In this document: positions 2,319 to 43,411 of the stretch, in pieces | Layout of the letters: each line of letters opens with the position of its first letter | Numbering within the stretch: the stretch's first letter is position 1 | Origin: a virus | Taxonomy: Duplodnaviria; Heunggongvirae; Uroviricota; Caudoviricetes | DNA length: 45,329 nucleotides | Strand: one strand, 5' to 3' | Virus record (IMG/VR): IMGVR_UViG_2541047734_000008 | Span: 1-45,329 of that record | Notes under the pieces: generated by a model | What the model saw: the letters and a program-made list of their open reading frames with translations, nothing else | Database searches by the model: none | What the model was told of the DNA's origin: nothing | Program-made: the position numbers and the translations under genes

Positions 2319-2744
2319 ATGGAATTACAGGACTGGCGAAAAGAACCTCGTAAAAACTATTCGAATGAATTCAAACTTCGTATGGTGGAACTGGCATCAC
2401 AACCTGGAGCTTGTGTTGCACAGATTGCACGTGAAAATGGCGTCAATGATAATGTTATTTTCAAATGGCTCAGGCTCTGGCAGAACGAAGGGCGTGTTTC
2501 GCGGCGTCTTCCGGTAACGACCTCTTCTGACACTGGCGTTGAATTATTACCTGTAGAAATAACGCCGGATGAGCAGAAAGAACCTGTGGCGGCCATTGCG
2601 CCGTCTTTATCCACTTCCACTCAGACCAGAGTCAGTGCCAGTTCCTGCAAGGTGGAATTCCGTCACGGTAACATGACGCTGGAAAATCCATCGCCAGAGC
2701 TGCTCACGGTGTTGATCCGTGAACTGACCGGGAGGGGAAGATGA
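2319..2744 (+). CDS. IS66-family accessory protein TnpA (orf1)
   Basis: 141 aa, MELQDWRKEPRKNYSNEFKLRMVELASQPGACVAQIARENGV... HTH-type; first ORF of an IS66 triad. Confidence 0.8.
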   Translation: MELQDWRKEPRKNYSNEFKLRMVELASQPGACVAQIARENGVNDNVIFKWLRLWQNEGRVSRRLPVTTSSDTGVELLPVEITPDEQKEPVAAIAPSLSTSTQTRVSASSCKVEFRHGNMTLENPSPELLTVLIRELTGRGR

Positions 2745-3091
2745 TCTCACTCCCATCAGGTACCCGTATCTGGCTCGTTGCCGGCGTTACCGATATGCGT
2801 AAATCCTTCAACGGACTGGGAGAACAGGTACAACATGTGCTGAATGATAATCCCTTCTCCGGTCACCTGTTTATCTTCCGTGGCCGACGGGGTGACACCG
2901 TCAAAATTCTTTGGGCTGATGCTGATGGTCTGTGCCTGTTCACCAAACGCCTGGAGGAAGGCCAGTTTATCTGGCCTGCGGTACGTGACGGCAAGGTATC
3001 CATTACCCGCTCGCAACTGGCAATGCTCCTCGATAAGCTGGACTGGCGTCAGCCAAAAACATCCAGCCGTAACTCACTGACAATGTTGTAA
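2741..3091 (+). CDS. IS66-family TnpB (orf2)
   Basis: 116 aa, overlaps orf1 stop (ATGA); MISLPSGTRIWLVAGVTDMRKSFNGL... typical IS66 Orf2. Confidence 0.8.
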   Translation: MISLPSGTRIWLVAGVTDMRKSFNGLGEQVQHVLNDNPFSGHLFIFRGRRGDTVKILWADADGLCLFTKRLEEGQFIWPAVRDGKVSITRSQLAMLLDKLDWRQPKTSSRNSLTML

Positions 3092-3121
3092 AAAACTCCT
3101 GACCGCATTATAAAAACGGTC

Positions 3122-4735
3122 ATGAGTCAGAAATACCTCATTCGCATCGCAGAGCTGGAAAGGTTGCTCTCTGAGCAGGCTGAAGCCCTCCGTCAGAAAG
3201 ACCAGCAACTGAGTCTGGTTGAAGAGACGGAAGCCTTCCTGCGCTCTGCACTGACACGTGCCGAAGAAAAGATCGAAGAAGATGAACGGGAAATAGAACA
3301 TCTGCGGGCTCAGATAGAAAAACTGCGCCGGATGCTGTTCGGTACCCGTTCTGAAAAACTGCGTCGTGAAGTTGAACTGGCTGAGGCTCTGCTGAAACAA
3401 CGTGAACAGGACAGCGATCGTTACAGTGGGCGGGAAGACGATCCTCAGGTTCCCCGCCAGTTGCGACAGTCGCGCCATCGTCGTCCGTTACCGGCACACC
3501 TTCCCCGTGAAATACACCGCCTGGAGCCAGAAGAAAGCTGTTGCCCGGAGTGTGGCGGTGAGCTGGATTATCTGGGGGAAGTCAGCGCTGAACAGCTGGA
3601 ACTGGTGAGCAGTGCCCTGAAAGTGATCCGCACAGAACGGGTAAAAAAAGCCTGTACAAAATGTGACTGTATTGTTGAAGCACCGGCGCCGTCCCGCCCG
3701 ATAGAGCGTGGTATCGCGGGCCCCGGATTACTTGCCCGCGTGTTAACGGGAAAATACTGCGAACATCTGCCACTGTATCGTCAGAGTGAAATCTTTGCCC
3801 GCCAGGGTGTCGAACTGAGCCGGGCCTTACTCTCCAACTGGGTTGACGCGTGCTGCCAGTTAATGACACCGGTGAATGATGCCCTGTACCGTTATGTAAT
3901 GAACACCCGCAAGGTTCACACTGATGACACACCGGTAAAGGTACTGGCACCGGGTCAGAAAAAGGCGAAAACAGGGCGTATCTGGACGTATGTCCGGGAT
4001 GATCGCAATGTGGGTTCGTCATCTCCTCCAGCGGTCTGGTTCGCGTACTCGCCGAACCGGCAGGGGAAACACCCGGAGCAACACCTCCGCCCCTTCCGGG
4101 GTATCCTGCAGGCGGATGCGTTCACAGGTTACGACAGGTTGTTCAGTGCAGAACGTGAAGGTGGTGCACTGACAGAAGTTGCGTGCTGGGCCCATGCCCG
4201 GCGAAAAATCCACGATGTATACATCAGCAGCAAAAGTGCGACGGCAGAAGAAGCCCTGAAGCGAATCAGTGAACTGTACGCCATCGAGGATGAAATACGG
4301 GGATTACCGGAGTCAGAGCGTCTTGCCGTCAGGCAGCAGCGAAGCAAAGTGTTACTGACGTCGCTGCATGAATGGATGGTGGAGAAGAATGGTACGCTGT
4401 CGAAAAAATCCAGACTGGGCGAAGCGTTCAGCTATGTACTGAATCAGTGGGATGCCCTCTGTTATTACAGTGATGACGGTCTGGCGGAGGCGGATAATAA
4501 TGCTGCGGAAAGAGCGCTTCGTGCAGTCTGTCTCGGAAAGAAAAACTTTATGTTCTTTGGCAGCGATCACGGCGGCGAGCGTGGAGCACTGTTGTACGGG
4601 CTGATCGGCACCTGCCGTCTGAACGGTATCGATCCGGAAGCGTATCTGCGCCATATCCTGAGCGTACTGCCGGAATGGCCTTCCAACCGAGTTGATGAAC
4701 TCCTGCCATGGAACGTAGTACTCACCAATAAATAA
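3122..4735 (+). CDS. IS66-family transposase (orf3)
   Basis: 537 aa with N-terminal coiled-coil/leucine-zipper, CxxC...CxxC zinc motif and DDE-type core; third ORF of the triad. Confidence 0.85.
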   Translation: MSQKYLIRIAELERLLSEQAEALRQKDQQLSLVEETEAFLRSALTRAEEKIEEDEREIEHLRAQIEKLRRMLFGTRSEKLRREVELAEALLKQREQDSDRYSGREDDPQVPRQLRQSRHRRPLPAHLPREIHRLEPEESCCPECGGELDYLGEVSAEQLELVSSALKVIRTERVKKACTKCDCIVEAPAPSRPIERGIAGPGLLARVLTGKYCEHLPLYRQSEIFARQGVELSRALLSNWVDACCQLMTPVNDALYRYVMNTRKVHTDDTPVKVLAPGQKKAKTGRIWTYVRDDRNVGSSSPPAVWFAYSPNRQGKHPEQHLRPFRGILQADAFTGYDRLFSAEREGGALTEVACWAHARRKIHDVYISSKSATAEEALKRISELYAIEDEIRGLPESERLAVRQQRSKVLLTSLHEWMVEKNGTLSKKSRLGEAFSYVLNQWDALCYYSDDGLAEADNNAAERALRAVCLGKKNFMFFGSDHGGERGALLYGLIGTCRLNGIDPEAYLRHILSVLPEWPSNRVDELLPWNVVLTNK

Positions 4736-16810: not shown

Positions 16811-16885
16811 ATCCCTGAAAGTGGGTGCCGATAATACTGAAAATTTATTCCATTAAATGAGCATTATCCTCTCTCATCCATTCCG

Positions 16886-19616: not shown

Positions 19617-19915
19617 CAGTACACCCCCACATCACGATAAACCGACCAGAGCGCAGAAATAGCCATAGGCAGTTCAGACTGCTCCACTGGTGAAACTGCT
19701 TCCCTGTTCTCGTACAGGAAAGCGATGTACATCAGGCAACCAACACGCATTGCCGGGGTAAATTCCAGCCCGTCTTCAAAACGTTTCCCGATATGCTTCT
19801 GGCAGGCTTCCAGCGCCGCATCGGTATACATTTTCAGAAGTTCGCCTTCTCCGGAAAAGTCATCAAGGCGAAGATGTGCCCTGACCTCATCAGGTGTAAT
19901 TTTTTCTTCACTCAT
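19616..19915 (-). CDS. Island head-tail connector protein (gp6-like)
   Basis: Start at MSEEKITPDEVRAHLRLDD..; gp6-like. Confidence 0.6.
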   Translation of the reverse strand: MSEEKITPDEVRAHLRLDDFSGEGELLKMYTDAALEACQKHIGKRFEDGLEFTPAMRVGCLMYIAFLYENREAVSPVEQSELPMAISALWSVYRDVGVY

Positions 19916-21122: not shown

Positions 21123-21123
21123 A

Positions 21124-21684: not shown

Positions 21685-21733
21685 CGGTGTACTCCATAAA
21701 GCTGAAAAAGGAGGCCGAAGCCCCCTTTGCTCA

Positions 21734-22879: not shown

Positions 22880-23152
22880 GAAGGTTTTCTCGTATTGGTT
22901 AAGATTCAGGACGTGAAACCAACACGGAGGGAGCGCCGCCCGACACTCTCGGCATCTCGCAGATCAACCCGGCATCGCGCAGGGGTCAGGCGGCATTGTG
23001 GCGGCTCACGTCTGAGTGCCACACGCCAACATATACATAAAAATCAGTATGTAAACATCAGCCAGAATCACCGAACAACCTGGAACAACCACGAACAAAT
23101 AATTTACAAAACCTGAAAAAAAGACCCGGGAAAAATCCGGGCCTTTATCGCT

Positions 23153-23401
23153 TTATTGTTTCACTGGATCCCGCATTCTGCGTCTTATTTTCCACAGATA
23201 TTCGATCATCGCTTCCACCTGCTCACGGTTGGTTGCGAAAATTTCCCCGGTCAGTGAGCTACGCAGAAAATCATGATGATCCACAACAAACAACGCATCG
23301 GAAGAAAGCAGACGGCGATATTTTTTTGCTGTCGTGGTTTCCAGATCATCAAAACCATGAAACTTTTTATGTTGCTGGACTTCTTCAAATGTCACTGGCA
23401 T
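23153..23401 (-). CDS. Island hypothetical protein
   Basis: 82 aa ORF in operon orientation. Confidence 0.4.
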   Translation of the reverse strand: MPVTFEEVQQHKKFHGFDDLETTTAKKYRRLLSSDALFVVDHHDFLRSSLTGEIFATNREQVEAMIEYLWKIRRRMRDPVKQ

Positions 23402-23934
23402 GTATCCCCCTTTGCTGCCCGGCGCTGGCGCTTGTGCTTCTCATTCAGCGCCATCAGCCGCGTTTCTGCCTCCTGCTGTTCCTGTGGTGTCACTTCCCCA
23501 CATGGCTGGCCTTTCAGGTCGTAGCGTACCCCACCAGCAACCAGGGCGCGGTAATAGCGCGGAGACTGCGCATAAGATGCCAGCGTCGCACGTAATGCCC
23601 CCGGCCCGAATGCCAGCCCCCTGACGGCGAGATCCTGCATCAGGTCGTCGAATATTCCCACCTTAAGCGGCTTCGGTGCTTCCCTGTTGAATAAGTCAGG
23701 CCACATCTCAGTGAGGCGGTTAACGCGCCTGCGGTTTTTGCGCTGGCGTTTGGTCATATGCCGCCACGGTGTCACCCCTGTGGGCTGCCCTTTGCGGCTC
23801 TGCTGTGCGTTCTGATTGCCGGGTATCACTTTATGCGCCGATGTGGTTTTATCCCGCTCTTGCGCCGCCTGCGTCGTTTTCTGCGGCGTGCCGTAAATGC
23901 CTTTCGGTTTTCGGTTAATGGTCAGCTTTGTCAT
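23392..23934 (-). CDS. ProQ/FinO-domain RNA-binding protein (island)
   Basis: 180 aa, basic N-terminus, ..LTEMWPDLFNREAPKPLKVGIFDDLMQDL...RATLASYAQSPRYYRALVAGGVRYDLKGQP.. resembles the FinO/ProQ fold signature. Confidence 0.6.
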   Translation of the reverse strand: MTKLTINRKPKGIYGTPQKTTQAAQERDKTTSAHKVIPGNQNAQQSRKGQPTGVTPWRHMTKRQRKNRRRVNRLTEMWPDLFNREAPKPLKVGIFDDLMQDLAVRGLAFGPGALRATLASYAQSPRYYRALVAGGVRYDLKGQPCGEVTPQEQQEAETRLMALNEKHKRQRRAAKGDTCQ

Positions 23935-23970
23935 GCCTTCCCCTGTAATTACTCTGTTCGCTGTTGTGAA

Positions 23971-24396
23971 TTAAAACGGTATGTTATCCCCGTACAGGTC
24001 ATCGTGCTGGCCTGTCTGTTGTTTTGCCCTGTTCAGTGCGTCAGTAGCTTGGCTCTGCTGGCCTTTTTTGCCGCCCGGTCGCGCCGTTCGCGCACTGATT
24101 ACGCTGTCTGCGATGACCTGCCAGCCCTGCCGCGTTTCGCCGTTCTGGCCTGTCCACTGGCTCACCTGCATGTTACCCGCCACGCTCACCAGTTCGCCTT
24201 TGTGGTGCTTTGCCAGTGCGTCGGCCTGTCTGCCAAACGCCAGGACGGATAACCACATCGTCGCCGTTCCGTCATCTGCCTGGCTGCACGGCAGGGGAAC
24301 CGCCATACTCGCCATCGCCATTTGTGTCCCCTTGCTGGTGGTCTTTAACTGCGGGTCAGCCACCAGCCGCCCGTAAGCCGCTATCTGTGCTGTCAT
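23971..24396 (-). CDS. Single-stranded DNA-binding protein (island)
   Basis: 141 aa OB-fold-like with acidic C-terminal tail ..DDLYGDNIPF. Confidence 0.75.
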   Translation of the reverse strand: MTAQIAAYGRLVADPQLKTTSKGTQMAMASMAVPLPCSQADDGTATMWLSVLAFGRQADALAKHHKGELVSVAGNMQVSQWTGQNGETRQGWQVIADSVISARTARPGGKKGQQSQATDALNRAKQQTGQHDDLYGDNIPF

Positions 24397-24644
24397 GCTG
24401 TCTGCTCTCCGGTTTTAACGTTGATGGTTGTCACCTGTTCCGCTTCGGCAATCTCCCGCTCTGTCAGCGTGGCAAAATTTGCCGCCGCCGTGGTCATGAA
24501 TGCGCTTATCAGTTCGGGATGTGCTTTCGCGTATCCTTCTCCGGCATGGCGGTCTATTGTTCTGATTGCCACCTTTAAGGCATGCTCTGTCATGTCTAAT
24601 GCGCGATATTTTGGCGCTGTCTTATCTCTGGTTTTTCTGGTCAT
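24393..24644 (-). CDS. Island hypothetical protein
   Basis: 83 aa; overlaps ssb start. Confidence 0.4.
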   Translation of the reverse strand: MTRKTRDKTAPKYRALDMTEHALKVAIRTIDRHAGEGYAKAHPELISAFMTTAAANFATLTEREIAEAEQVTTINVKTGEQTA

Positions 24645-24648
24645 TCCT

Positions 24649-24848
24649 CACTGCTCCCCACTTTTACTACCCACTTTTTGAAATTACCCAACGTCTCCCC
24701 ACTTCTTTTTTTTGTGATTCTAACGTGATGTTTTTCAATGTATTTTTTATTCCCCACTTTTTGGGGTATATACAGGTGGGAAAGTGGGGAATCGCGTTTC
24801 AATTTTGTTAAATTCCCCACACTCCCCACTTTTACTACCCACTTTTTA
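24649..24848. repeat. Iteron cluster / candidate island replication origin next to rep
   Basis: TCCCCACTTTTACTACCCACTTTTT at 24649 and again at 24822; additional CCCCACTT copies in both orientations; AT-rich centre. Confidence 0.7.
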
Positions 24849-26261
24849 CAGTGGGCGCACGTCATCACCGTCAATAGCAATAACGCCATCACCTTCCAGC
24901 TTGTACAGCCAGCGCCGGAAGTGTTTCATCTCATACCCCAGCTTTTTCATATCATCGCGCAACAACGGAATTGTGCATTTATCGCCGCGCTGTGTGCGTG
25001 AACGGATACAGCCCCATAGCGCGGCATGATTCTCCGTCTTGTTCCCGGCTTCCTCGATGCGCTCCAGTTCAACAGGTGGGCGCGGCTTATCCACAACCAC
25101 CAGCGACGTGATTAACTCCCCGTCAGTGTCGGTAAAAAGCTCTACCACGCGTAAATCATATGCAGCCTCTTTCAGTTCCTCCGCGTCCTTCATTTTGGTA
25201 CAGGAGATAACCAGGGCTTCACTGTCCGCACCTTCACGGCGAATACGGTATTCAGCGTCCAGAGATGCACGGAATGCACTGGAACCACGCGCTCCCTTTG
25301 TTTCATCCTTGCCGGAATGGTGAACCACCAGCACCGTGGCCCCTGTGCGTCGTTTCAGTTCGTCACATCCACGGATAAACGCCCCCATATCCCGCGCGTC
25401 ATTTTCATCATTACCGCCAAAACACCGCGCCAGCGTATCCAGAATAATCATGCGTACCGGTTTACCCGTTTCCCTTTCAACCTGGCGGGAAGCGATGACC
25501 ATTTCATCGACATCAAGCGGGACTGCCGGAAAAATCGGGCGGTTTACCAGGTACAGATTTTCCACCCGTTTATCATTAACGATTTCCCATGCCTTGATAC
25601 GGCGGGGGACACCAATGCCACCTTCACCGACAACATACATCACCGAACCATGCGCCACCCTGCGGCCTCCCCAGTGGCGACCCGTGGCAACATGACACGC
25701 CCAGGAACACGCGAGGAACGATTTATAGGAACCGCTCGCGCCGTATGTGCTGCACAATGAATTAGCCGGAATCACGCCCTTAACGACATAATCAAGCTGT
25801 GTGTCGTATCCTGCAGATCCAATACTCATTGGTAGCGTGGTTTTTCGCTGGCTGTATTGCTCGTCAGTAAGTATTTCCCCGCGCTCTGCCTGTTCGCGGA
25901 TCCGTTGCAGGTAGTCGTGCCAGTTCTCCAGCTTCTGGTTGTGCATTCCCTCAGGGTAATAATTCGCATCCCGTACACCTGCCGCCGCCAGCTTTTGCCC
26001 GATAGCATTAATATTTGACGGCTTGATGTGGCCTGCCTTGTACAGCCGGACACAATAGCGACCATCGTCGATAATTTTCAGGTCTGCCAGTTCGTCAAGC
26101 TGGCTGTCTCCAAGCCATACAGGCGGAACATTGTCGCCAGCAAGTCGCCCGTCCTGCTCCTGCCATTGTTTCGCGTGCGCCCAGGCATCACTACCCGCAA
26201 AAATAATGACTTCGGTCATTTTGTCGTGCGGCTGTTTTTTTAAGTTCGGTGCCAGTTTCAT
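24846..26261 (-). CDS. Island replication initiator: primase/helicase-type Rep (RecA-like AAA ATPase)
   Basis: 471 aa; Walker A-like GASGSYKSF, Walker B MIILDTL; sits beside iterons as PICI pri-rep genes do. Confidence 0.7.
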   Translation of the reverse strand: MKLAPNLKKQPHDKMTEVIIFAGSDAWAHAKQWQEQDGRLAGDNVPPVWLGDSQLDELADLKIIDDGRYCVRLYKAGHIKPSNINAIGQKLAAAGVRDANYYPEGMHNQKLENWHDYLQRIREQAERGEILTDEQYSQRKTTLPMSIGSAGYDTQLDYVVKGVIPANSLCSTYGASGSYKSFLACSWACHVATGRHWGGRRVAHGSVMYVVGEGGIGVPRRIKAWEIVNDKRVENLYLVNRPIFPAVPLDVDEMVIASRQVERETGKPVRMIILDTLARCFGGNDENDARDMGAFIRGCDELKRRTGATVLVVHHSGKDETKGARGSSAFRASLDAEYRIRREGADSEALVISCTKMKDAEELKEAAYDLRVVELFTDTDGELITSLVVVDKPRPPVELERIEEAGNKTENHAALWGCIRSRTQRGDKCTIPLLRDDMKKLGYEMKHFRRWLYKLEGDGVIAIDGDDVRPL

Positions 26262-26557
26262 TTTTTCCCCCTGAATCCGTTAAGCATTTTTCTTATGGCC
26301 TGAATATTTGCCCGTGCCTTCTCTTTGCTGGTGGGCTGATTGCGCGGCGCGGTCTGTACCAGGGAAAAATCACGCCGGAACTGATAAACAGGCATCACAC
26401 AGTCATAGCCGTACCCATCACGGCGGTAAATAACGCACCGTCCCGCCACGCTTTTAATCGTTACCGTGCCGCCATAGTTATCCCGGAAAATATCGCCGGG
26501 GCGGATTTCAGGCCGAACGGAGCCGCTGGCAGTAAAGCCAGAATTTTTCTGTTTCAT
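26258..26557 (-). CDS. Island hypothetical protein
   Basis: 99 aa ORF, operon context. Confidence 0.4.
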   Translation of the reverse strand: MKQKNSGFTASGSVRPEIRPGDIFRDNYGGTVTIKSVAGRCVIYRRDGYGYDCVMPVYQFRRDFSLVQTAPRNQPTSKEKARANIQAIRKMLNGFRGKK

Positions 26558-26562
26558 GGTTT

Positions 26563-26772
26563 TTATTCCTCTGCGCGGGCCTTGTTGTGTATTTCCATAA
26601 CCGCGTTTAATTCATCAATAACCGGGGTTAACAGAGTGCTGAAAGCAGAAAATAAATCCCCCCCCTGTTCGGCATGAACTTCGGTTAATTTAATTAATAC
26701 TGCTTTCATTTCCAGTGCCCGGTTTAATGCATTCTCAGAATGAATAAGAACATCGAAAGGGATTTTATCCAT
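26563..26772 (-). CDS. Island hypothetical protein
   Basis: 69 aa ORF. Confidence 0.35.
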   Translation of the reverse strand: MDKIPFDVLIHSENALNRALEMKAVLIKLTEVHAEQGGDLFSAFSTLLTPVIDELNAVMEIHNKARAEE

Positions 26773-27025
26773 GGCTTACATCCTCCGTGAATTTTCTTCT
26801 GTACCGTGCCTCTGCCACATATTCCGCATAGTCCGACGCAATATTGAGAATATCGCTACCCGTTCCTGAATGTTCGGCGGTTTCCAGTAAAAAACTTGCA
26901 GCTTTTACCATGTCAGCAACACATAACAGCGCAATATCTGTATCTTCCGGTGCGCCATCAAATTCCTGTTTCAGGGCATTAAAACGATCATCACGCATAA
27001 CCCCCCCCATTTTCACAATCAGCAA
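26765..27025 (-). CDS. Island hypothetical protein
   Basis: 86 aa ORF. Confidence 0.35.
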   Translation of the reverse strand: MLIVKMGGVMRDDRFNALKQEFDGAPEDTDIALLCVADMVKAASFLLETAEHSGTGSDILNIASDYAEYVAEARYRRKFTEDVSHG

Positions 27026-27230
27026 TTAGGATGGCTTTAGCCTCATTCAGTGCCATATCAGCGGTAAGCTGTGCGTAGGCCAGCGAATGGGGGATTATTT
27101 CCCCTGTATATTCCGTCTCTCTGGTAATGTGTTTTTCTGCGGTTGCTGCCGTGCATGAAATATCAATCAGCGCGTGCATCAGCGTTTTGATGGCTTCGGC
27201 GGCTGCGTCCGGACGGGTGTTATTGCACAT
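26991..27230 (-). CDS. Island hypothetical protein
   Basis: 79 aa ORF. Confidence 0.35.
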   Translation of the reverse strand: MCNNTRPDAAAEAIKTLMHALIDISCTAATAEKHITRETEYTGEIIPHSLAYAQLTADMALNEAKAILIADCENGGGYA

Positions 27231-27426
27231 GGCGCACCCCCTGACGAATACGGGCGGCGAATACCATCACACAGCCAGCCGGGGATTGCTGGCGTGCTTC
27301 CTGTTCGCTGGTGGCCTCAATGGTAATCACGCGCGGTTGTGCCGTGCTCAGGGCGATAAAACGCCAGATATATTTATTCAGGTTGTGCGAGTCCCGCCCT
27401 TGCGGGTGTGTGGTATGATTTCTCAT
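27220..27426 (-). CDS. Island small protein, first gene of leftward operon
   Basis: 68 aa from MRNHTTHPQGRDSHNLNKYIWRFIALSTAQP..; GAGG RBS; the track's 358 aa extension upstream is not protein-like. Confidence 0.45.
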   Translation of the reverse strand: MRNHTTHPQGRDSHNLNKYIWRFIALSTAQPRVITIEATSEQEARQQSPAGCVMVFAARIRQGVRHVQ

Positions 27427-27502
27427 AGCTACCTCGATACTCTTGCTATCGTTGGTGGTTAGACGCCCTGCATGTGTTGCGAGCACTGCGGGGCGTTGCT
27501 TA

Positions 27503-27603
27503 ATTTGAGTGACAAAACTCAAACTGTGCGCACAGATTAAAATCATGTGTGCGCACATGTCAATACTTAACATCTCATTTTTTTTGCTGTATTGTGTGCG
27601 CCC
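27503..27603. promoter_or_regulatory. Divergent regulatory region with palindromic operators TGTGCGCACA
   Basis: TGTGCGCACA at 27525..27534 and 27549..27558 (within CATGTGTGCGCACATG), half-site GTGTGCGC at about 27593; lies between divergent gene starts 27426 and 27632. Confidence 0.55.
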
Positions 27604-27631
27604 ATAAAGTCCATTTAAGTGAGGTGCATCA

Positions 27632-27829
27632 ATGTCTAGCGGTAACACAAACAACAAATCAGCAAAGAAAAATATTCGATTCCCACATGAGCTTATAGAT
27701 GGGATTGATGCCAGCGTTGAACAAGAAAAATTAACTAATCCTAGTGCTAATTTTTCCGCATGGGTCTTAGATGCCTGTGGACGCAAATTAAAATATGAAC
27801 AGCGCCGGAAGGCCAAAGAATCAGAATAA
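27632..27829 (+). CDS. Small ribbon-helix-helix (Arc/MetJ-like) DNA-binding protein, candidate island regulator
   Basis: 65 aa; ..KKNIRFPHELIDGIDASVE..NFSAWVLDACGRKL.. beta-strand plus two helices pattern. Confidence 0.5.
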   Translation: MSSGNTNNKSAKKNIRFPHELIDGIDASVEQEKLTNPSANFSAWVLDACGRKLKYEQRRKAKESE

Positions 27830-27871
27830 TCACTATCAGCGCCGTGGTGTGAGTAACTACGGCGCATTGCT

Positions 27872-28060
27872 ATGCAGGACAACACAATGACCGATAAAGA
27901 ATTGACCAAAACATTATCACCGACACGGAAAAGACGGCGCAGAAAGATAGAGCATGAATCAGAAAGATTCGCACCTTGTTCGTTTGCTCTTGAGAAATTC
28001 CTTAAAGAGCGCAGGAAAAAGCTCTCGTTGCAAACCCTGGAACGAACCAAATCTGACTGA
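27872..28060 (+). CDS. Island hypothetical basic protein
   Basis: 62 aa ORF downstream of the RHH gene. Confidence 0.35.
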   Translation: MQDNTMTDKELTKTLSPTRKRRRRKIEHESERFAPCSFALEKFLKERRKKLSLQTLERTKSD

Positions 28061-28126
28061 TCACATTGCCCACCAGCCGCAAATGTGGCATTGTTGGTGA
28101 TGCTTTTGTTTTCCCTTGTTCCCACT

Positions 28127-28155
28127 GGCGACCCTTTTGCGGTCGCCTTTGTTTT
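28127..28155 (+). terminator. Intrinsic terminator
   Basis: GGCGACC-CTTTTGC-GGTCGCC followed by TTTGTTTT. Confidence 0.6.
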
Positions 28156-28251
28156 GCCTGTTATCCGGCAATAGTGGCGCTTCGTCACCTGTCTGATATA
28201 ATTCCACAGCTTATATTCATTTTTTGCGCAGTAGGTTAATTGTTCGCAAGG

Positions 28252-28282
28252 GCGCTCCGGCAACGGGGCGCTTTTTGTTTTT
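28252..28282 (+). terminator. Intrinsic terminator (GNRA-loop hairpin)
   Basis: GCGCTCCG-GCAA-CGGGGCGC followed by TTTTTGTTTTT. Confidence 0.6.
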
Positions 28283-28440
28283 ACCCACCAGCACAATAAA
28301 AATCTTCATTTTCCATTTTTGTAAAATTTCATGCTTTCCGGACGACTGGTCATATGTCATTTTTTAGCAGAAGATTTTGCCTTGCTGGTGGGTAGCTTCC
28401 CGGTCAACACGATGTACCGTATAATCAACACCGCGTGTGG

Positions 28441-29019
28441 TTACTGAATACGCTCACCAAAGTAAAACTCAGGCTGGTATTCACGTATCAGCCTTTTTTC
28501 TTCTTCCTCCAGCTCACGCTTTTTGCGCTTACATGCCTGTAGCTCCCTCCCCTTCTCACTGGCACTTATCTGGTATTGCTCTTTGCGGCGGGAAAAATCC
28601 TGTAATGCGCCCCACGGGATACCATAAGCCCCCGTTTTTCTGATACCCGGTATCACATTTCTGAATACCCAGTTACTGAAACGATGAGCAAATGTGCCAG
28701 GCGTCGTTGCTTTGCGGCTGCGGGCTATTAGTTTGTAGAAACCTGACTCGGAGATAATGCTCATATTCTGATTTCCTCCGGGGGTGTAAGTTAAATTTAC
28801 TCCCTTTTCGTCATCATCAAGCATCTGCAACGCCGTACGCGAATTGGTCAGTTCCAGCGCAGCACAAACATCCTTTGCAACAAACCACGGATCGCCGTTT
28901 AGATACACCACACGAACATCCACGCCATCAAAGCGCAGAACGACCAGATCACGAATATCACAGAATTTTTTCACATGACGTGCGTCACCCTTGCCCGTCA
29001 CGGCAATATTTTTATTCAT
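28441..29019 (-). CDS. Bro-N domain protein (antirepressor-like)
   Basis: 192 aa; ..FDGVDVRVVYLNGDPWFVAKDVCAALEL.. Bro-N signature. Confidence 0.7.
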   Translation of the reverse strand: MNKNIAVTGKGDARHVKKFCDIRDLVVLRFDGVDVRVVYLNGDPWFVAKDVCAALELTNSRTALQMLDDDEKGVNLTYTPGGNQNMSIISESGFYKLIARSRKATTPGTFAHRFSNWVFRNVIPGIRKTGAYGIPWGALQDFSRRKEQYQISASEKGRELQACKRKKRELEEEEKRLIREYQPEFYFGERIQ

Positions 29020-29076
29020 TGCTTTTTACCTCACATACAAAAAACCCCGCATTGCGTGGTGCGGGGTTGTCGGTAA

Positions 29077-29355
29077 TTACTTATTGGCGTTTTTGTATGG
29101 GCTGTTTACTTCCTTTACTCCTGGCGGATGCATAACCCACCAGAGCACATCAGAGAGCAACCAGGAAACAGACACTTTCCCTAAATGAGCACGAGCAGGA
29201 AATGCTCCCTCCTGTTCAAGTACCCAACGTCTGCTTCTTGAAAGCCCGGTACGATTGGCACACTCATGTTCGCGTATACGGCGATCATACGGTTCGCCAT
29301 GATCTTTCAGAATCTGAATGCGTTCTTCGGGTGTAGGATAAATAAATTTTTGCAT
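29077..29355 (-). CDS. AlpA-family transcriptional regulator (second copy)
   Basis: Start at MQKFIYPTPEE..; AlpA-type HTH. Confidence 0.6.
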   Translation of the reverse strand: MQKFIYPTPEERIQILKDHGEPYDRRIREHECANRTGLSRSRRWVLEQEGAFPARAHLGKVSVSWLLSDVLWWVMHPPGVKEVNSPYKNANK

Positions 29356-29418
29356 AAAAATATCACCTATAAAAAAACCCGCCAAAAGACGGGTTGATTA
29401 TATCTCATTTAATTTAGC

Positions 29419-29652
29419 TCAGGGTTTCCATTCACCTTTTACCCATTCCAGCACCTCAGATAAGCGCCAGACTTTTGTTTGTGGGCCAATACATATTTTT
29501 CGTGGAAATTTTCCTTCCTTTTCAAGTAACGATCTGTGTCTCCTGCCAAGAGCGGTTAACCATGCACATTCATCTTCCTTAATCATCCTGTCGATTGTTT
29601 CATCATTTTCAAGTTCTTCACGCGTAACTATTTGAATCATTACTGTCACCAC
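29419..29652 (-). CDS. AlpA-family transcriptional regulator
   Basis: 77 aa; ..KICIGPQTKVWRLSEVLEWVKG..; immediately downstream of int. Confidence 0.7.
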   Translation of the reverse strand: MVTVMIQIVTREELENDETIDRMIKEDECAWLTALGRRHRSLLEKEGKFPRKICIGPQTKVWRLSEVLEWVKGEWKP

Positions 29653-30841
29653 TAATTTGCTTATTCAGATAGTCGTACCACCAGTTCATAGCTTCTTTTT
29701 TTCTGTCCATATACTGGCTTCTGTTATAAACCCCGGCAACACCGCCTAATGTGTGCCCAAGCAACTGTTCAACCACATTATGTTCAAAACCATGATCACT
29801 TAGTTTTGTGGCAAACACTCTTCGCATATCATGCGCCGTCCATTTCTCCGAGTGTTTCATCCTTTTCCATGTCTTACCGATAGTTACGCTTGCCGTACAC
29901 TGACGCATATCAAACCCAATCACATTTTCTTTGTTACCTGTTATTTTTTTTAACGTAACTAACCAGTTAAACATGCCATCAGGAATCGGTCTGATTATTT
30001 CCCTGCCATTTTTGCTATGATCAGCGGGAACGCGCCATAATTTCTTATCAAAATCCCACTCTACCCAGGACGACAGTAATACTTCTGACAGTCGACAACC
30101 AAAAACTACCAGGAAACGTAAAATAATTCGGTTTTCATATGATAATTCGTGATTGTCATAATCAGTATTAATACTTCGCCATAAATCTCTGATTTCATCA
30201 TCTGTTAAAACCCTGCTTCTTCGCGCAGACTTTTTTCCCACATCACAGACCTCAAGATCATCAATTTCATGACTAATCGCGTATTTTCTTACCCTACAAA
30301 ATTTAAGCGCCTGTTTTGATATACGCAACAAAGCTCCGGCCTGTACAGGTGCTACTTTTTTTATTTTGTCAAAACACTTAATCCACATAGATATAGAGCA
30401 ATCACTAAGTGGTACATGACCAATCACCGGATAAATATGTTTACCAAAGCACTGCCTGATATGTTCTGCTCCCCTACGCTTATCCATTGCATAATTATCA
30501 AGCCAGTATTCAAGTGCCTCACGAACGGTAACAGGTTGCAAGGTGGCTTCCCGTTCAATTTTTATCTGAATCCGTGGATCTCTGCCCTCCGCAAGCCAGG
30601 TTCGACACTGATCGCGCATCTCTCTCGCTGATTTGAGACTCAGATCAGGATATTTTCCAAGTGTCAGCCAGATGGGCGCGGTTCCCCTTCCCGCCAGTCT
30701 GTAAAAGAAAACAAAACTAACACATCCGTATTTACTGACCCGTACCGAAAGCCCGTTACCATCAGCGATGGTTTCCTGCCTCTCACTCCTGCGTCCAAGC
30801 AGGGAACGAAGTTTTTTATCGCTCAGTTTGTTTAGCGCCAT
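29618..30841 (-). CDS. Tyrosine integrase (P4-type)
   Basis: Start at MALNKLSDKKLRSL..; C-terminal catalytic region ..HDMRRVFATKL...LLGHTLGGVAGVYNRSQY..; adjacent to the island boundary. Confidence 0.9.
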   Translation of the reverse strand: MALNKLSDKKLRSLLGRRSERQETIADGNGLSVRVSKYGCVSFVFFYRLAGRGTAPIWLTLGKYPDLSLKSAREMRDQCRTWLAEGRDPRIQIKIEREATLQPVTVREALEYWLDNYAMDKRRGAEHIRQCFGKHIYPVIGHVPLSDCSISMWIKCFDKIKKVAPVQAGALLRISKQALKFCRVRKYAISHEIDDLEVCDVGKKSARRSRVLTDDEIRDLWRSINTDYDNHELSYENRIILRFLVVFGCRLSEVLLSSWVEWDFDKKLWRVPADHSKNGREIIRPIPDGMFNWLVTLKKITGNKENVIGFDMRQCTASVTIGKTWKRMKHSEKWTAHDMRRVFATKLSDHGFEHNVVEQLLGHTLGGVAGVYNRSQYMDRKKEAMNWWYDYLNKQISGDSNDSNSYA

Positions 30842-31012
30842 GTGATTTATAACCCGTTTTTGCAATACACAGTGCAATACACAAATGATGAAAACAGCCA
30901 GAACCTTCCAGAAAAAACAAAAACGACGAACAAGAAAAAATCTTTTTCTTTCATTTGGTTACTAAAAAAATCAGGACAGGTCGCACTGTTGTTACGGCGT
31001 GATGTTACTTTC

Positions 31013-32040
31013 TTGGTAAAAAAATTCACCCGCGCAGAGACCTGTTCTTTCGCTTTTTTCGCCAGGCGACGCAGATCATCCCAGCGTTTACAGATGCCCA
31101 GGCCGGGATTCGCTTTCTGCCAGACCGTTTCATCAAACGGATCATCTCCCTCATCGAGGGTGTAAATAATCGCAAAGTAGGAGTCGTCTTTTACCGCGCC
31201 CTCCACGTCGCTGTTATAGCCACGCAATACCTTGATGGCGTAATCACGCTGCTCGTAACAAATCCCTTCCTTGTTAAACCCTGCCGTGGTGATACCAAAT
31301 AAAAGGGACTGCAGACGGGCACCGGTTGCCGTTTCCAGAACGTCCCACACGTCACGGGTTTTATGTGCATGCAGCTCATCAATAATGGCGCAGTGGATGT
31401 TCAGACCATCCAGGTTGTTTGCATCCGAAGAAAGCGGTTCAAATTTTGATGCGCTCTGCTCCTGGTAAATCGCCAGCTTGTTGAAATCAAACAACCGCCC
31501 GAGTGTCGACCGGGCTTTTCTGACCATATTTTTGGCGTCTTCAAACACGATTCTGGCCTGGTCACGCGTGGTTGCGGCTGAATACACCTCAGCTCCGCCT
31601 TCACCATCTGCCCCCGTCATATACAGGCCGATACCCGATGACAGAGTTGATTTTGCGTTTTTACGGGCGACTTCGTTGTACGCCGTCCGGAACCGGCGCA
31701 CCATCACCGGACGTCCGCTGCCATCGCTGCGCATGACAACTTCCCCGGTCTCTTCATTGACCAGCGGAATGACAAAACCAAAAATATTAATGAGGATAAA
31801 TACATGCCAGTCCATCAACTCAATGGGCTGGCCTGCCAGCGCCCCTTTTACATGAGGCACAAATTTGTAGAAATTCAGGATGTGCTGCGCACGGGGTTCA
31901 CTGAAATAAATCCCCCGCTCTTCGCCGTACTTCAGATCATCAAGAAAACGCTGGCAGGCCAGGCGGACAAATTCGCCAGCAACAATTTCTCCTGCAACAA
32001 CACGTTCGGCGTAGCGGATCCCGTCAGCCACTTTTGCCAT
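31013..32040 (-). pseudogene. Prophage terminase large subunit, N-terminal (ATPase-domain) fragment
   Basis: 397 aa ORF with Walker-type ATPase region; homology to island TerL residues 1 to ~310 ends at ..ARVNFFTKK, then about 45 unrelated codons run into island DNA near the integrase. Confidence 0.85.
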
Positions 32041-32522
32041 CAGTCTCTCGCTTTTAAAAGCTCCGCCAGCGGATCAACATCATCCGGTCCGGCGATATTT
32101 ACTTTAGCCCGGCTTGCCGGTGACATACCAAACTCTGCAAGCATTGCCCGGATCCGCTTCCAGGCATCCGCTTTCATTGCCGCCGCGGGGTGCGCCTTAA
32201 TCAGTACATCACCGCTCTGCGTTTCCGTGCGGTAGGTATACCCCTCAACATCGAGTGTTTCGCAGTGATGCCGATATTCGGTGTAGGCTTCCACCAGCAG
32301 CTCGAGCGCACGCGCATCAAGCTGAGAAATGATCCCTTCCGCATTCAGCTCTTCCGCCATTCGCCTGAACCAGTACTTCCCCTGAGCCCCTAAATGCTGC
32401 GGAATTTTAGGAAGACCTTTTTCATCCTTTTTAGCGGTTTTTTTGTGGTCTTTAACGGGGCGCTTTGAGGGGTTACCTCGAATCAAATGCAGGCGTGGCG
32501 GGGTTTTCGGAGGTCCTGACAT
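32040..32522 (-). CDS. Prophage terminase small subunit (P27 family)
   Basis: 160 aa, MSGPPKTPPRLHLIRGNPSKR..; immediately upstream of the terL N-fragment. Confidence 0.8.
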   Translation of the reverse strand: MSGPPKTPPRLHLIRGNPSKRPVKDHKKTAKKDEKGLPKIPQHLGAQGKYWFRRMAEELNAEGIISQLDARALELLVEAYTEYRHHCETLDVEGYTYRTETQSGDVLIKAHPAAAMKADAWKRIRAMLAEFGMSPASRAKVNIAGPDDVDPLAELLKARD

Positions 32523-32670: not shown

Positions 32671-33021
32671 TCAATTGATGCGTTCGCGCGCTGTTTTTGC
32701 TTTATGACAGGGCCAGCACAGACTCTGCAGGTTACTGTCTGCATCTGTGCCACCATGAGCTTTCGGAATGATGTGGTCCACAGTTCTGGCTTCAACGGCT
32801 CTCCCATTGCGCAGGCAGTTCTGACACAGATGATTATCACGCTTCAGTATGCGCGCACGTATGGCATCCCATTTCGAGCCATAGCCACGCTGGTGGCGGC
32901 TCAGTCCGCGTTGATGCTGTACCCATCCTTCGCCACGATGTTTATCGCAGTAACCAGAACTGTCTGTGGTTGTACCTGCACATCCACGCTTACGGCAGGC
33001 GCGTGGGATTCGTGATGGCAT
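32671..33021 (-). CDS. Prophage HNH endonuclease
   Basis: 116 aa, Cys-rich, ..VDHIIPKAHGGTDADSNLQSLCWPCHKAKT.. Confidence 0.8.
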   Translation of the reverse strand: MPSRIPRACRKRGCAGTTTDSSGYCDKHRGEGWVQHQRGLSRHQRGYGSKWDAIRARILKRDNHLCQNCLRNGRAVEARTVDHIIPKAHGGTDADSNLQSLCWPCHKAKTARERIN

Positions 33022-33028
33022 AAATACC

Positions 33029-33229
33029 TCACACCCTGTTCAGTTGAATGACGGGCTGATTCTCGATATGTTCTGCTGTCAGTCTGAAAGTCACAGTGAC
33101 TGTTGGTGGCTCGCCTCCGCGTGACTCTGTCCTGGCGGAAAGCTGCCCTTCCAGTAACTCACCATCAACTGCAATCCCATACCCTGCGAAATGTTTACCA
33201 CGATACAGTTTAGCGACCTGAAACTTCAT
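33029..33229 (-). CDS. Hypothetical protein
   Basis: 66 aa ORF upstream of HNH. Confidence 0.35.
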   Translation of the reverse strand: MKFQVAKLYRGKHFAGYGIAVDGELLEGQLSARTESRGGEPPTVTVTFRLTAEHIENQPVIQLNRV

Positions 33230-33473
33230 AACTCTTCCTTTTAGACATGTTAGACGTGAACCTGTCGCACGGCAGAGTCGCCGAAAGTTTACGGTTTACC
33301 CAGGCTCACAGCTGAAAGCCTTTCTTAGATGTGCACATGCGATATGCTTTGAATGAATTATTAAAAACTTTACTCTTTTTCAAAATTTCGTATCCTGGCT
33401 CGTTAATGTTAAAGAATTAAACGTAAGAAAGTAGTATGTTGAATCGCTTATATCAAAATACATAGGACTCAAA

Positions 33474-33959
33474 ATGCCAGAACTCGTTGATCCAACAGAC
33501 TCATTAATTAGTTTTCAATACGCCTTTTCTAATGGTCTGATTAAGCCTTCACCATGCATAGTTCACCCAAATATGAAGGTGCTTTTGGATGATGCAGAGG
33601 GTACACCACGGTTTACTTATGCATTCTTTGAAGGAGAAAATGTTAAAGGTGTTGCTATATATGTCCCTGCAGAGTTTGTTGAAGGTAAACCATGCTTTGG
33701 CGTTGGCTATGCAGTAGCCGATGAATATAAAGCGCAAGGCATCGGTACTCAACTTCTCATCGCCAGCATTGAAGAAATGCAATACGGATTTAGAAATTCC
33801 TTCAATGAATTCTATGTAGAGGCTATTGTCGGGGTTGGTAATCAAGCCTCCAACAAATTAGCTGCAAAAGTTTTATCTGATACTCCTGAGCCAGGGACAG
33901 ATTCTTACTCAGGAAAACCTATCAATCAGTACATGAAACTTTTCAAAACCACAAAATAA
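33474..33959 (+). CDS. GNAT-family N-acetyltransferase (moron-like gene)
   Basis: 161 aa; ..GVGYAVADEYKAQGIGTQLL.. acetyl-CoA-binding motif; opposite strand to the late operon, AT-rich flanks, own terminator. Confidence 0.6.
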   Translation: MPELVDPTDSLISFQYAFSNGLIKPSPCIVHPNMKVLLDDAEGTPRFTYAFFEGENVKGVAIYVPAEFVEGKPCFGVGYAVADEYKAQGIGTQLLIASIEEMQYGFRNSFNEFYVEAIVGVGNQASNKLAAKVLSDTPEPGTDSYSGKPINQYMKLFKTTK

Positions 33960-33970
33960 CTACCATTCTG

Positions 33971-33993
33971 GCGCAGATTTTTGCGCCTTTTCA
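33971..33993 (+). terminator. Intrinsic terminator after GNAT gene
   Basis: GGCGCA-GATTTT-TGCGCC followed by TTTTC. Confidence 0.6.
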
Positions 33994-34137
33994 GGTTTGC
34001 AGTTCACCTGCCACGCTTTGTTATGCGCCTGAATGTCCCGCTTCGTCTGTTGCATTATCATAAGTAATAGCGTAGGTTGACACCTTGGCTCTCTTTCGCC
34101 ACCGGCGAATCTTTAGCGGATTATCCTTGGCCGTTTT

Positions 34138-34620
34138 TTATCTGAGACATTGCTCACGAATGTATAGCTGTGCCCCTTCCAGTTGCTTCTGCATCGTCAT
34201 CAACCGTTCTCTGAGGGTGAAATAATCCCGTTCAGCGGTGTCTGCCAGTCGGGGGCTGGTTGCATTATCCACGCTGGTGGGTCCGGTGGCTTCACGCACG
34301 GCTGCGGAGCAACTGGCATTGACCCGCAGGCGCTTACGACCAGCGGCAACATCAGCGCGCAGAGTTTCATTTTCAGCTTTCGCATTGGCTAATTCTCTCG
34401 AGTACTTTGCATCGAGCGCAGCAACATCACGCTGACGCTGTTGCATGTCAGCGATGGTGGCAGTCGCCTGCTTCAGCTCACTGACTTTTTTATCACGCTG
34501 TTCTTTGTAGGCGATGGCGTTATCACGGTAATGATTGACCGCCCACGACAGGCAGACGATGGTGCAGATAACCAGAGTATAAATAATCGCTGCGACTCTG
34601 CTCACTGATCTATCCCCCAA
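34138..34620 (-). CDS. i-spanin Rz
   Basis: 160 aa, N-terminal TM segment, coiled-coil; follows the endolysin. Confidence 0.8.
34200..34385 (-). CDS. o-spanin Rz1 (lipoprotein embedded in Rz in alternate frame)
   Basis: 61 aa, lipobox LVVSAC, Pro-rich; entirely inside Rz. Confidence 0.75.
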
Positions 34621-36016: not shown

Positions 36017-36092
<76 letters not shown>

Positions 36093-36094
36093 AT

Positions 36095-36171
<77 letters not shown>

Positions 36172-36172
36172 A

Positions 36173-36249
36173 CTGGACCGCCACCGGGGACTCGAACCTC
36201 GCACACTCAACTTAAAGGGTTGACGCTCTTTCCTGATGAGCTAGTGGCG
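36173..36249 (-). tRNA. Atypical tRNA-like gene, anticodon UUU (Lys) by position, with C at position 33
   Basis: Acceptor CCGCCAC/GTGGCGG, anticodon stem TCAAC/GTTGA, loop CCTTTAA, T-loop TTCGAGT with one T-stem mismatch, CCA encoded. Confidence 0.5.
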
Positions 36250-36250
36250 G

Positions 36251-36326
36251 CTGGTGGCCCTTGCTGGATTTGAACCAGCGACCTGGCGATTATGAGTCGC
36301 TCGCTCTCACCACTGAGCTAAAGGGC
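36251..36326 (-). tRNA. tRNA with CAU anticodon (Met or lysidine-modified Ile2)
   Basis: Acceptor GGCCCTT/AAGGGCC, anticodon loop CTCATAA, T-loop TTCAAAT, CCA encoded. Confidence 0.75.
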
Positions 36327-36430
36327 CGGGCGCAGGATAATAACGTTACGAAATCAATGTTGCAAGCATTCAAAAATCACCCTTATCTCCTCCACTAGCG
36401 CATTCACCATGTCTATCCGAGATAAGTGGC

Positions 36431-42361: not shown

Positions 42362-42626
42362 GAATCAAGCTCCTAGAAAGTGGTTGTGTTAACGTTTTGG
42401 TATCTTCCAGCTCGGGCCAAATATTCATCCAATCAAAAGGCCTTAGTTGCTGACGTGTAACTTCACCATTACTGGCTCGCTCAATAAGGACGCATAACGA
42501 TGCCCCTAACACTTGACCTTTACTCAATGCCTTTCTTAGATAACCGATGCTGGTACCACACTCGCATGCAAACATACGCTGTTCATCTGACGAAAGAGAA
42601 TTGAGAAATATTCTTAATTCTTCCAT
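42345..42626 (-). CDS. Cro/YdaS-like HTH regulator
   Basis: 93 aa, ..CGTSIGYLRKALSKGQ.. HTH; divergent from the repressor gene. Confidence 0.6.
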   Translation of the reverse strand: MEELRIFLNSLSSDEQRMFACECGTSIGYLRKALSKGQVLGASLCVLIERASNGEVTRQQLRPFDWMNIWPELEDTKTLTQPLSRSLIHENQA

Positions 42627-42653
42627 AGCTACTCCTTAGTAAACACAGTAAAG

Positions 42654-42733
42654 AATACCCACAGGTAAACAAAAGTCAATACCCACAGGTTGTTTACCTT
42701 GCGGTAATCGCATCTATTATTTACCTATGGACA
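42654..42733. promoter_or_regulatory. Divergent promoter/operator region of the immunity switch with repeated TACC-N4-GGTA sites
   Basis: AATACCCACAGGT at 42654..42666 and 42679..42691; TACCTATGG overlapping the repressor start codon. Confidence 0.55.
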
Positions 42734-43146
42734 AATATGAATTTAGACGACAGCAACTCATCAAAATTCGTGATGAGAAATGCGATGGTAAAGCGGTTAA
42801 CGTGGCCAGAAAGATCGGGCGCGAGCCTTCTTATGTATCAAGAATGTTGTACCCAGAGGGGAAAAAGGGAAAAAAACGGATCGCTGATGATATGGTGGAG
42901 ATTATCGAAGAGTCCTTTGGGTTACCCCGGGGATGGATGGATGGTATCGTTTCATCATCAACGAACACAGCCTCCAGTTATGAAACAAGGGTTCTAACGC
43001 CACGACAACGTATTTTTTTAGATCTCTTAGACGAACTGCCAGAAAGTGAAGCGGATAACTTATTAAAAACTCTTGAAGAGAAAAAACAGTATTACAATAT
43101 GATCTACGAAGAAATCCGTAAAAAGAAAGCACAAAACGCATCATAG
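42727..43146 (+). CDS. DicA-like HTH repressor
   Basis: 139 aa; HTH ..AVNVARKIGREPSYVSRML..; C-terminus ..FLDLLDELPESEADNLLKTLEE.. resembles DicA. Confidence 0.65.
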   Translation: MDKYEFRRQQLIKIRDEKCDGKAVNVARKIGREPSYVSRMLYPEGKKGKKRIADDMVEIIEESFGLPRGWMDGIVSSSTNTASSYETRVLTPRQRIFLDLLDELPESEADNLLKTLEEKKQYYNMIYEEIRKKKAQNAS

Positions 43147-43188
43147 CTCACCAAACAACTAGTCACCAGTTAAGACACCGCAAAAAGT

Positions 43189-43225
43189 TACCCATGGGTA
43201 TTTACTTTTTAAATACCTATGGGTA
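43189..43225. promoter_or_regulatory. Palindromic operator-like sites downstream of repressor gene
   Basis: TACCCATGGGTA (perfect 12-bp palindrome, 43189..43200) and TACCTATGGGTA (43214..43225). Confidence 0.5.
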
Positions 43226-43411
43226 TCCTTCTTTTCATACCAACCCACCCCGCCCCACAGAATGCAGGGCAATACTTCGAGTTACCAGGCAGTGGTCAGG
43301 GGTTAAGTAGCCAGCCCGAGGCGTAAGAACATGACGGCAGGGTTCAACTTTAATAACTATGCAGCAGGTTTTTGTTCCGCTACCCCAGCGTTAAGGGGAA
43401 ATGAGGTCAGC

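Follow-up and report, generated by a model that had tools for sequence, protein, structure and literature searches.

The prophage late region and the slot behind its lysis genes

The window (the whole stretch of DNA that was analysed, 45,329 nucleotides) is a lambdoid prophage of Escherichia coli that combines an HK97-like head with a lambda-like tail. Its late genes run on the minus strand in the order Q, four tRNA genes, holin, a YdfR-like gene, lysozyme, Rz/Rz1 and a cargo slot, and continue beyond the slot with HNH, a P27-type TerS, TerL, portal, the HK97-type head genes and the lambda-type tail genes. The final gene of the lysis cassette, the i-spanin gene Rz (34138..34620, minus strand; phrog_13, E = 3.5e-75; a lysis protein by annotation in L001), forms the high-coordinate edge of the slot, and the o-spanin gene Rz1 (34200..34385, minus strand; phrog_3198, E = 2.3e-28) is embedded in it. 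The low-coordinate edge is the HNH endonuclease gene of the HK97-type packaging module (32671..33021, minus strand), which was identified by phrog_144 (E = 1.8e-40) and by annotation. TerS (32040..32522, minus strand) lies on the same side, with TerL beyond it. Within the slot, a gene for a GNAT-family N-acetyltransferase of 161 aa was found on the plus strand (33474..33959), and its product is identical to WP_001114684.1 of E. coli 20Ec-P-124. A 66-aa late-strand ORF of unknown function (33029..33229, minus strand; phrog_10235) separates the GNAT cassette from HNH. Since this ORF is missing from the prophage with an empty slot described below, it belongs to the variable slot.

An earlier sequence-only reading had placed the gene between Rz/Rz1 and the packaging genes, and the annotated neighbours agree with this: Rz/Rz1 are on one side, and the 66-aa ORF, HNH, TerS and TerL are on the other. 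The AT-rich setting that it described was also observed, with a GC fraction of 0.38-0.40 across 33200-33999 versus 0.53-0.55 on either side. Its claim that the gene is the only plus-strand gene of the late region holds for the prophage's own late module, but an IS66-family element adds three plus-strand ORFs (2319..4735). This insertion (2234-4764) is at the tail-fibre end of the prophage and is lacking in a reference prophage; its ORFs are at 2319..2744, 2741..3091 and 3122..4735 (DDE_Tnp_IS66), all on the plus strand.

Two other parts of the prophage were also noted. The four tRNA genes between Q and holin (36018-36327, minus strand) are Gly-UCC, Thr-UGU, Lys-UUU and one with a CAU anticodon, which is assigned to Met by ARAGORN and to Ile by RefSeq in an identical prophage. 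In the immunity/early region, about 880 bp (42367-43245) have no counterpart in the reference prophage, which is otherwise 99.5-99.9% identical and carries about 1.08 kb of different sequence at this place; this looks like a module swap.

The TerL gene of the prophage is split by a 14.6-kb insertion (16378-31012). The NZ_AP017610 prophage, otherwise 98.7-99.6% identical, lacks the insertion, and there is an overlap of 14 bp between the two BLAST segments. The genes of the insertion code for a tyrosine integrase, Bro-N, an AAA_25 protein, ProQ/FinO, an HK97-type capsid protein, portal, TerS and TerL. No tail gene was detected among the nine insertion ORFs scanned, several smaller ORFs lying outside the scan. 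From its gene content, the insertion looks like a capsid-forming PICI-type phage satellite inside the TerL gene of the resident prophage. Of 5426 complete E. coli genomes, 36 have the same integrase-TerL junction, and this putative TerL-splitting satellite may be more interesting than the GNAT gene itself.

The GNAT interval is 100% identical to NZ_AP017610, and it was found with at least 99% identity in 63 of the 5426 complete E. coli genomes, as a single chromosomal copy each time. In the 50,697 deposited phage genomes, neither DNA nor protein searches found the gene. It is known from prophages and from IMG/VR viral contigs, some of them with metagenome-type identifiers and none from a phage shown to be viable.

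To define the slot, the 1950 bp from HNH to Rz were searched against all complete E. coli genomes, and slots with 94-99% identical flanks were compared. In L027 the slot is empty, and Rz and HNH are 42 bp apart. In L028 it holds iss (1177-1470, plus strand), a bor homologue for a serum-survival lipoprotein, antisense to the late operon. L026 carries a gene for a 179-aa YfbU-family protein (phrog_6084; 790-1329, plus strand), likewise antisense, plus an 88-aa late-strand ORF, and L029 carries a 270-bp late-strand ORF alone. Thus, the Rz-HNH slot is a cargo hotspot, in which antisense single-gene cargo is the rule. Because the empty slot of L027 lies between flanks of 94-99% identity, the core property of a moron, insertion between genes that adjoin each other in a relative, applies to the GNAT cassette.

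Morons were reportedly defined for HK97 and the lambdoid phages by Hendrix and colleagues. Like them, the cassette is a presumed additional transcription unit placed between two genes that adjoin each other in relatives, with a deviant composition and a terminator-like hairpin. It differs in that its promoter is not identifiable by consensus and the unit is known from sequence alone. Lambda bor has the same place and orientation as the GNAT cassette and is expressed from the lambda prophage. The cassette has in common with bor and iss the slot right after Rz/Rz1, the antisense orientation to the late operon and the logic of a one-gene cassette. However, bor and iss encode exported lipoproteins, whereas the product here would be a cytoplasmic acetyl-CoA enzyme, and there is no relationship in sequence or fold.

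The cassette has moved between genera. A block of about 800 bp (33252-34049), which runs from the upstream region through the ORF and the hairpin to about 60 bp past the hairpin, is 86% identical in a Dryocola prophage and 76% identical in an Enterobacter mori prophage. The limits of this conserved block are set by the cross-genus DNA homology, and the interval 33240-33993 that had been proposed for the unit fits them well. The Dryocola and E. mori flanks gave no DNA match except for a 327-bp stretch with 76% identity in the L003 endolysin gene. The GC fraction of the GNAT gene is 0.40-0.45 versus 0.48-0.55 for the locus in other genera. The earlier designation as a moron is upheld by the empty slot or other antisense cargo in sister prophages, by the mobility of the block between genera and by the foreign composition.

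The block also carries a trace of its origin. Downstream of the GNAT gene, the last 29 codons of a foreign o-spanin gene survive as a fossil on the minus strand (33960..34061), where they overlap the terminator-like hairpin. Of the 29 encoded residues, 23 are shared with the C-terminal end of a 78-aa lipoprotein ORF of Dryocola (L002 6490..6726, minus strand). This ORF is intact, converges on the GNAT gene and matches phrog_1275 (Rz-like spanin, E = 2e-33). The Rz/Rz1 genes of the E. coli prophage itself differ from this foreign spanin. The cassette thus entered through recombination with a phage that already had it just behind the lysis genes, and it brought the spanin-gene fragment along. 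In several Enterobacterales prophages, the GNAT gene adjoins late-strand glycosyltransferase/glucosyltransferase morons according to PHROGs (phrog_1579, phrog_854), as at L002 2276-5796 and its equivalents in L056, L059, L061-L065 and L067, where the slot is a multi-gene cargo island.

The GNAT protein and its flanking elements

The identity of the gene as a GNAT was confirmed. In the profile search, PF00583 (Pfam, clan Acetyltrans) matched residues 37-132 with 27.4 bits, above the gathering score of 20.7 (E = 4.4e-6), and the predicted structure is a confident GNAT fold (pLDDT 91.9), in which the model shows the mixed alpha/beta architecture with the beta4-alpha3-beta5-alpha4 core. The pyrophosphate loop of motif A, (Q/R)-x-x-G-x-(G/A), corresponds to K86-A-Q-G89-I-G91; among 163 relatives, position 86 is R in 87% and G89 is conserved in 99%. 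Thus, with three of its defining features found, the gene product is a member of the GNAT superfamily. Residues conserved in at least 95% of the 163 sequences are D39, R46 (100%), G78, A80, G89, E116, A117, N123 (100%) and S126. The N-terminal half is atypical: it consists of one helix and then four strands, and the canonical beta1/alpha2 is missing.

At the sequence level, the only PDB matches were archaeal N-terminal acetyltransferases, which span beta4-alpha3-beta5 and align over about 40 residues (E >= 6e-4). SSO0209 (archaeal Ard1) aligns in the motif A region and at E116, which stands opposite the Glu of the YLEVR strand; presumably, by analogy with the NAT enzymes, E116 is the general base. 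The NAT/Rim-type GNATs (SSO0209, RimI/RimJ/RimL, Naa30/Naa50) gave the best sequence matches and the top structural matches, and the motif A loop and the beta5 Glu are common to them and the present enzyme. However, structural identity to them is just 10-19%, the N-terminal half differs, and there is no sign here of a protein N-terminal substrate. Foldseek gave a TM score of about 0.5 to any solved or viral GNAT. Thus, the chemistry of the enzyme is predictable and its acceptor is not.

Pairwise dN/dS among nine versions of the gene from across genera is 0.05-0.2, which indicates purifying selection. The idea that the gene is non-functional, either an ORF that arose by chance or a remnant that decays in the AT-rich junk between modules, can draw on the lack of a promoter consensus and the absence of the gene from deposited phage genomes. 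It is contradicted by the Pfam score over threshold, the confident fold, the intact catalytic motifs, the low dN/dS and the near-identical copies in 63 genomes. A chance ORF is excluded, and the idea as a whole is extremely improbable. The product is predicted to be a soluble and catalytically intact-looking GNAT enzyme.

The substrate class is harder to assign. The enzyme might serve the lysogen in resistance or detoxification, with an aminoglycoside, a microcin C-type aminoacyl-nucleotide (as for MccE/RimL-like enzymes), phosphinothricin or a similar amine as its acceptor. The structural matches include RimL, RimJ, MccE, AAC(6') and phosphinothricin acetyltransferases, a zwitterionic acceptor would be well matched by the invariant Asp/Arg pair, and a weak similarity to PF13302 (Acetyltransf_3, RimJ/RimL-type; E = 0.0056) was found, for which precomputed hits exist in several relatives. 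However, the PF13302 score is under threshold (17.8 versus 25.4 bits), no neighbour stands out in the structural search, and the sole match in NCBIfam, which holds curated resistance models, is meaningless (ActPatMycb56, 11.6 bits versus a cut-off of 460, E = 0.09). In addition, according to one paper, antibiotic-resistance genes are less frequent on phage contigs than in bacterial genomes by a factor of at least 1000. We consider this role unlikely. By these profiles, the subfamily appears to lie near PF13302 and is not a member of it.

Upstream of the gene lies a conserved AT-rich region of about 220 bp (33252..33473, plus strand), which we presume to have a promoter or regulatory role. An AGGA Shine-Dalgarno sequence is at 33464-33467 (plus strand). 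Eleven distinct loci were aligned over this region. They share a small GC hairpin (about 33331-33347) with two compensatory G-C to A-U changes, and an invariant GTAT(G/T)TT motif at 33434-33440, 34-40 nt upstream of the ATG. In pairs in which synonymous sites are saturated (dS about 1), the upstream 190 nt are still 65-69% identical. This conservation beyond that of synonymous sites argues for a constrained regulatory region. A scan of the plus strand for consensus sigma-70 promoters found none, and an Rfam search of the region gave no match. RNAalifold predicted a weak structure (-6.8 kcal/mol).

Two candidates in this region were rejected. Hand-picked promoters, such as TTTACT-16-TATCCT at 33370-33397, have just 8 of 12 matches. 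A pairing of GUAUUUU with AAAAUGC (33434-33440 and 33470-33476), which could mask the start codon, is invariant and so has no covariation support.

The gene is followed by a hairpin that resembles an intrinsic terminator (33970..33991, plus strand). It begins 11 nt past the stop codon and has a 7-bp stem with five G-C pairs and a 4-nt loop (GGCGCAG-AUUU-UUGCGCC, 33970-33987), and UUUU follows at 33988-33991. A 61-nt stretch with the hairpin has a folding energy of -14.8 kcal/mol (z = -2.9 relative to shuffled sequences). The stem does not vary among three genera, and 14 loci have the motif. In Dryocola, the 3' end of the intact o-spanin coding sequence contains the hairpin, so that part of its conservation could be due to coding constraint. 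Better evidence for a real terminator is that analogous hairpins, unrelated in sequence, follow the stop codon in each subgroup: GGGCGCA...TGCGCC(C) in the 161-aa subgroup, AGGCGTTTTC...GAAAACGCCT in the 158-aa subgroup and AAAAGGGC...GCCCTTTTT in the Yersinia subgroup. The proposal that the gene has its own terminator is thus reasonably supported by distinct GC hairpins in three subgroups, but the tail has just four U and a consensus terminator scanner, which requires at least five T, reports none.

Relatives of the GNAT subfamily and their neighbours

A word-indexed search for relatives gave 39 clusters. An exhaustive profile search of 1.84 billion representatives gave 593 at E <= 0.001 and 452 at E <= 1e-10, nearly all of 155-170 aa, so that the subfamily comprises about 590 clusters at 50% identity. 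In Enterobacterales, the gene was found in the late regions of prophages of E. coli, Dryocola, Enterobacter, Cronobacter (57% identity) and Yersinia (46%), and in 29 IMG/VR viral contigs. In each of the 35 prophage and viral loci examined, with protein identities as low as 46%, it is antisense to the flanking late genes. The usual site is between the lysis genes and HNH/TerS, and in Yersinia it is between TerS and TerL. Literature searches by accession, and for GNAT together with moron, leading region or anti-defence, found no paper describing the subfamily.

Outside Enterobacterales, homologues with 37-50% identity were found on 34 plasmids. In pAU10, the relative adjoins an Abi-family gene and the antirestriction gene ardR. 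In Pseudomonas aeruginosa p382, it is within a long one-directional array of small ORFs beside Pycsar. A relative on an Agrobacterium plasmid adjoins TIR and S8/AAA genes, and one on an Aeromonas plasmid is near an Abi gene. At three further loci of unassigned replicon type, the neighbours are KorA, small ORFs and AbiJ (L042), resolvase, UmuDC, KilA-N and integrase (L043), and, for a relative with 41% identity (L041 1-14486, GCA_015665085.1), an AcrVA2-like gene, a RecA-dependent nuclease, an NAD-salvage block and HsdR. The NAD synthesis/salvage block of L041 contains NAD synthase, NAPRTase, isochorismatase, nucleotidyltransferase and NUDIX genes, and ADP-ribosyl glycohydrolase, PIN/PhoH, RNase H and CYTH genes are also present. 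This island resembles a counter-defence island. The neighbours at 19 more distant genome loci amount to 141 proteins, in which SSB and the N-terminal domain of ArdC were found twice each, in the company of ordinary metabolic genes. An all-against-all BLAST of the neighbours from 21 loci revealed no conserved partner gene. The subfamily is often, not always, mobile-element cargo in regions rich in conflict genes.

Two fusion proteins were encountered. P0097 (1098 aa, metagenomic) joins an Mrr-type nuclease and an nSTAND1 NTPase to a C-terminal GNAT, and in P0138 (204 aa) the GNAT is followed by a SEC-C zinc motif. As single cases each, they were rejected as functional clues.

The slot and these neighbours bear on whether the gene acts as prophage defence or as a toxin, that is, as a GNAT toxin that acetylates aminoacyl-tRNA (TacT, AtaT, KacT) or another abortive-infection effector against superinfecting phages. 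A moron slot and the presumed expression in the lysogen would suit known prophage defence cargo, Abi-family neighbours occur on two plasmids, and one relative is the Mrr-STAND fusion P0097. That fusion is, however, one of 593 relatives. The TacAT/AtaRT/KacAT toxins share the superfamily, a similar size and carriage on mobile elements with the window gene, but these modules, like ItaRT, have an adjacent small antitoxin gene (RHH/DUF1778), whereas no antitoxin-sized ORF was found beside the GNAT gene, the upstream 230 bp containing only non-conserved ORFs of 22-30 aa. The toxin match is no better than that of about 50 other GNATs, none of the 5027 defence models of PADLOC-DB v2 matched at E <= 1, and a PHROGs scan of the protein gave nothing specific. 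Therefore, the gene is not a member of the toxin-antitoxin GNATs or of known defence systems, nor, from the profile results above, of PF13302 or the curated resistance families. A defence or toxin role is improbable.

The same neighbourhoods are compatible with counter-defence or establishment, in which the enzyme would acetylate a host immune protein or signal and, from its own promoter, would be expressed at DNA entry rather than for the benefit of the lysogen. AcrVA5 is a GNAT anti-CRISPR that acetylates Cas12a. It is likewise a small stand-alone GNAT of mobile elements, and relatives of the window gene adjoin AcrVA2-like and anti-restriction genes. The likeness is one of superfamily and context, no homology past the superfamily having been seen. 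Phage Mu Mom, a DNA adenine modifier with a GNAT fold, is also among the closest known systems. In favour of counter-defence are the relatives on the 34 plasmids, often in one-directional small-gene arrays or near conflict genes, including ArdR with an Abi-family gene in pAU10, the array beside Pycsar in p382, KorA with AbiJ in L042, the L041 neighbours and the SSB and ArdC domains. In addition, if the genome is of the HK97 cos type, the gene order would place the gene, beside HNH, no more than about 1 kb from the end of the genome. On the other hand, the slot also holds iss/bor, a surface protein expressed in the lysogen, many distant relatives are in ordinary chromosomal neighbourhoods, and a Nature 2024 paper on the leading region makes no mention of acetyltransferases. 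A placement in the leading region was also rejected from the Pseudomonas syringae HS191 plasmid, the one plasmid viewed whole, where the gene is in a maintenance/cargo region about 30 kb from the transfer genes and not clearly beside the transfer origin. We regard counter-defence as possible, at a tentative level.

A proposed role for the cassette

Based on these results, we consider it probable that the locus is an autonomous antisense cassette for an active GNAT, driven by its own upstream region, insulated by the hairpin and switched on in the lysogen or straight after entry. The moron would have been inserted antisense to the late operon, in the variable slot between the spanin and the HNH/terminase genes, and it would consist of three parts: the AT-rich upstream region of about 220 bp, the 161-aa ORF, and the GC hairpin with its T-tract. 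Since the gene faces the late transcript, its own upstream region must drive transcription, which would not depend on the Q-dependent late promoter. We infer this autonomy from orientation and conservation, the sigma-70 scan of the plus strand being empty. Expression would take place in the lysogen or immediately after entry, and antisense late transcription would oppose it in lytic growth, as for lambda bor and iss.

Acetyl-CoA would be bound through the beta4-alpha3 loop K86-x-x-G89-x-G91 and N123. The beta5 glutamate E116 may deprotonate the amine acceptor, as in NAT/Rim-type GNATs, and the acceptor would be held by the family-specific invariant D39 and R46. The cassette would then be like bor/iss in its genome logic and like the NAT/Rim-type GNATs in its chemistry. 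The target is most likely a protein or small-molecule amine in a conflict between element, host and competitor, and not a housekeeping substrate.

The sequence-only reading had suggested a lysogenic-conversion function, and such a putative function is plausible. The plasmid contexts of the relatives fit counter-defence or establishment about as well as lysogenic conversion. A more specific form of the former can be put forward as a doubtful proposal: the subfamily (about 160 aa, with invariant D39, R46, E116 and N123) would be a mobile-element enzyme that acetylates and disables a component of host immunity, as AcrVA5 does and with a new target, and it would be encoded near the cos-proximal end under its own promoter so as to be made first.

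We conclude that the cassette is a genuine moron and, as such, a fairly ordinary feature. The novelty lies in having delimited the cassette, the cargo slot and the family, and no new kind of system is involved. The locus is a well-delimited example of a swappable post-lysis cargo slot in E. coli prophages, which holds iss, a YfbU-family gene, the GNAT gene or nothing, and the foreign spanin-gene fragment carried along with the cassette illustrates how such cargo moves. If the target is mundane, the gene would be one more uncharacterised GNAT, already labelled correctly by the NCBI pipeline, which names it "GNAT family N-acetyltransferase" in all 63 complete genomes listed. If the target is an immune or competitor-derived molecule, the enzyme would be a new player in the conflicts between mobile elements and their hosts.
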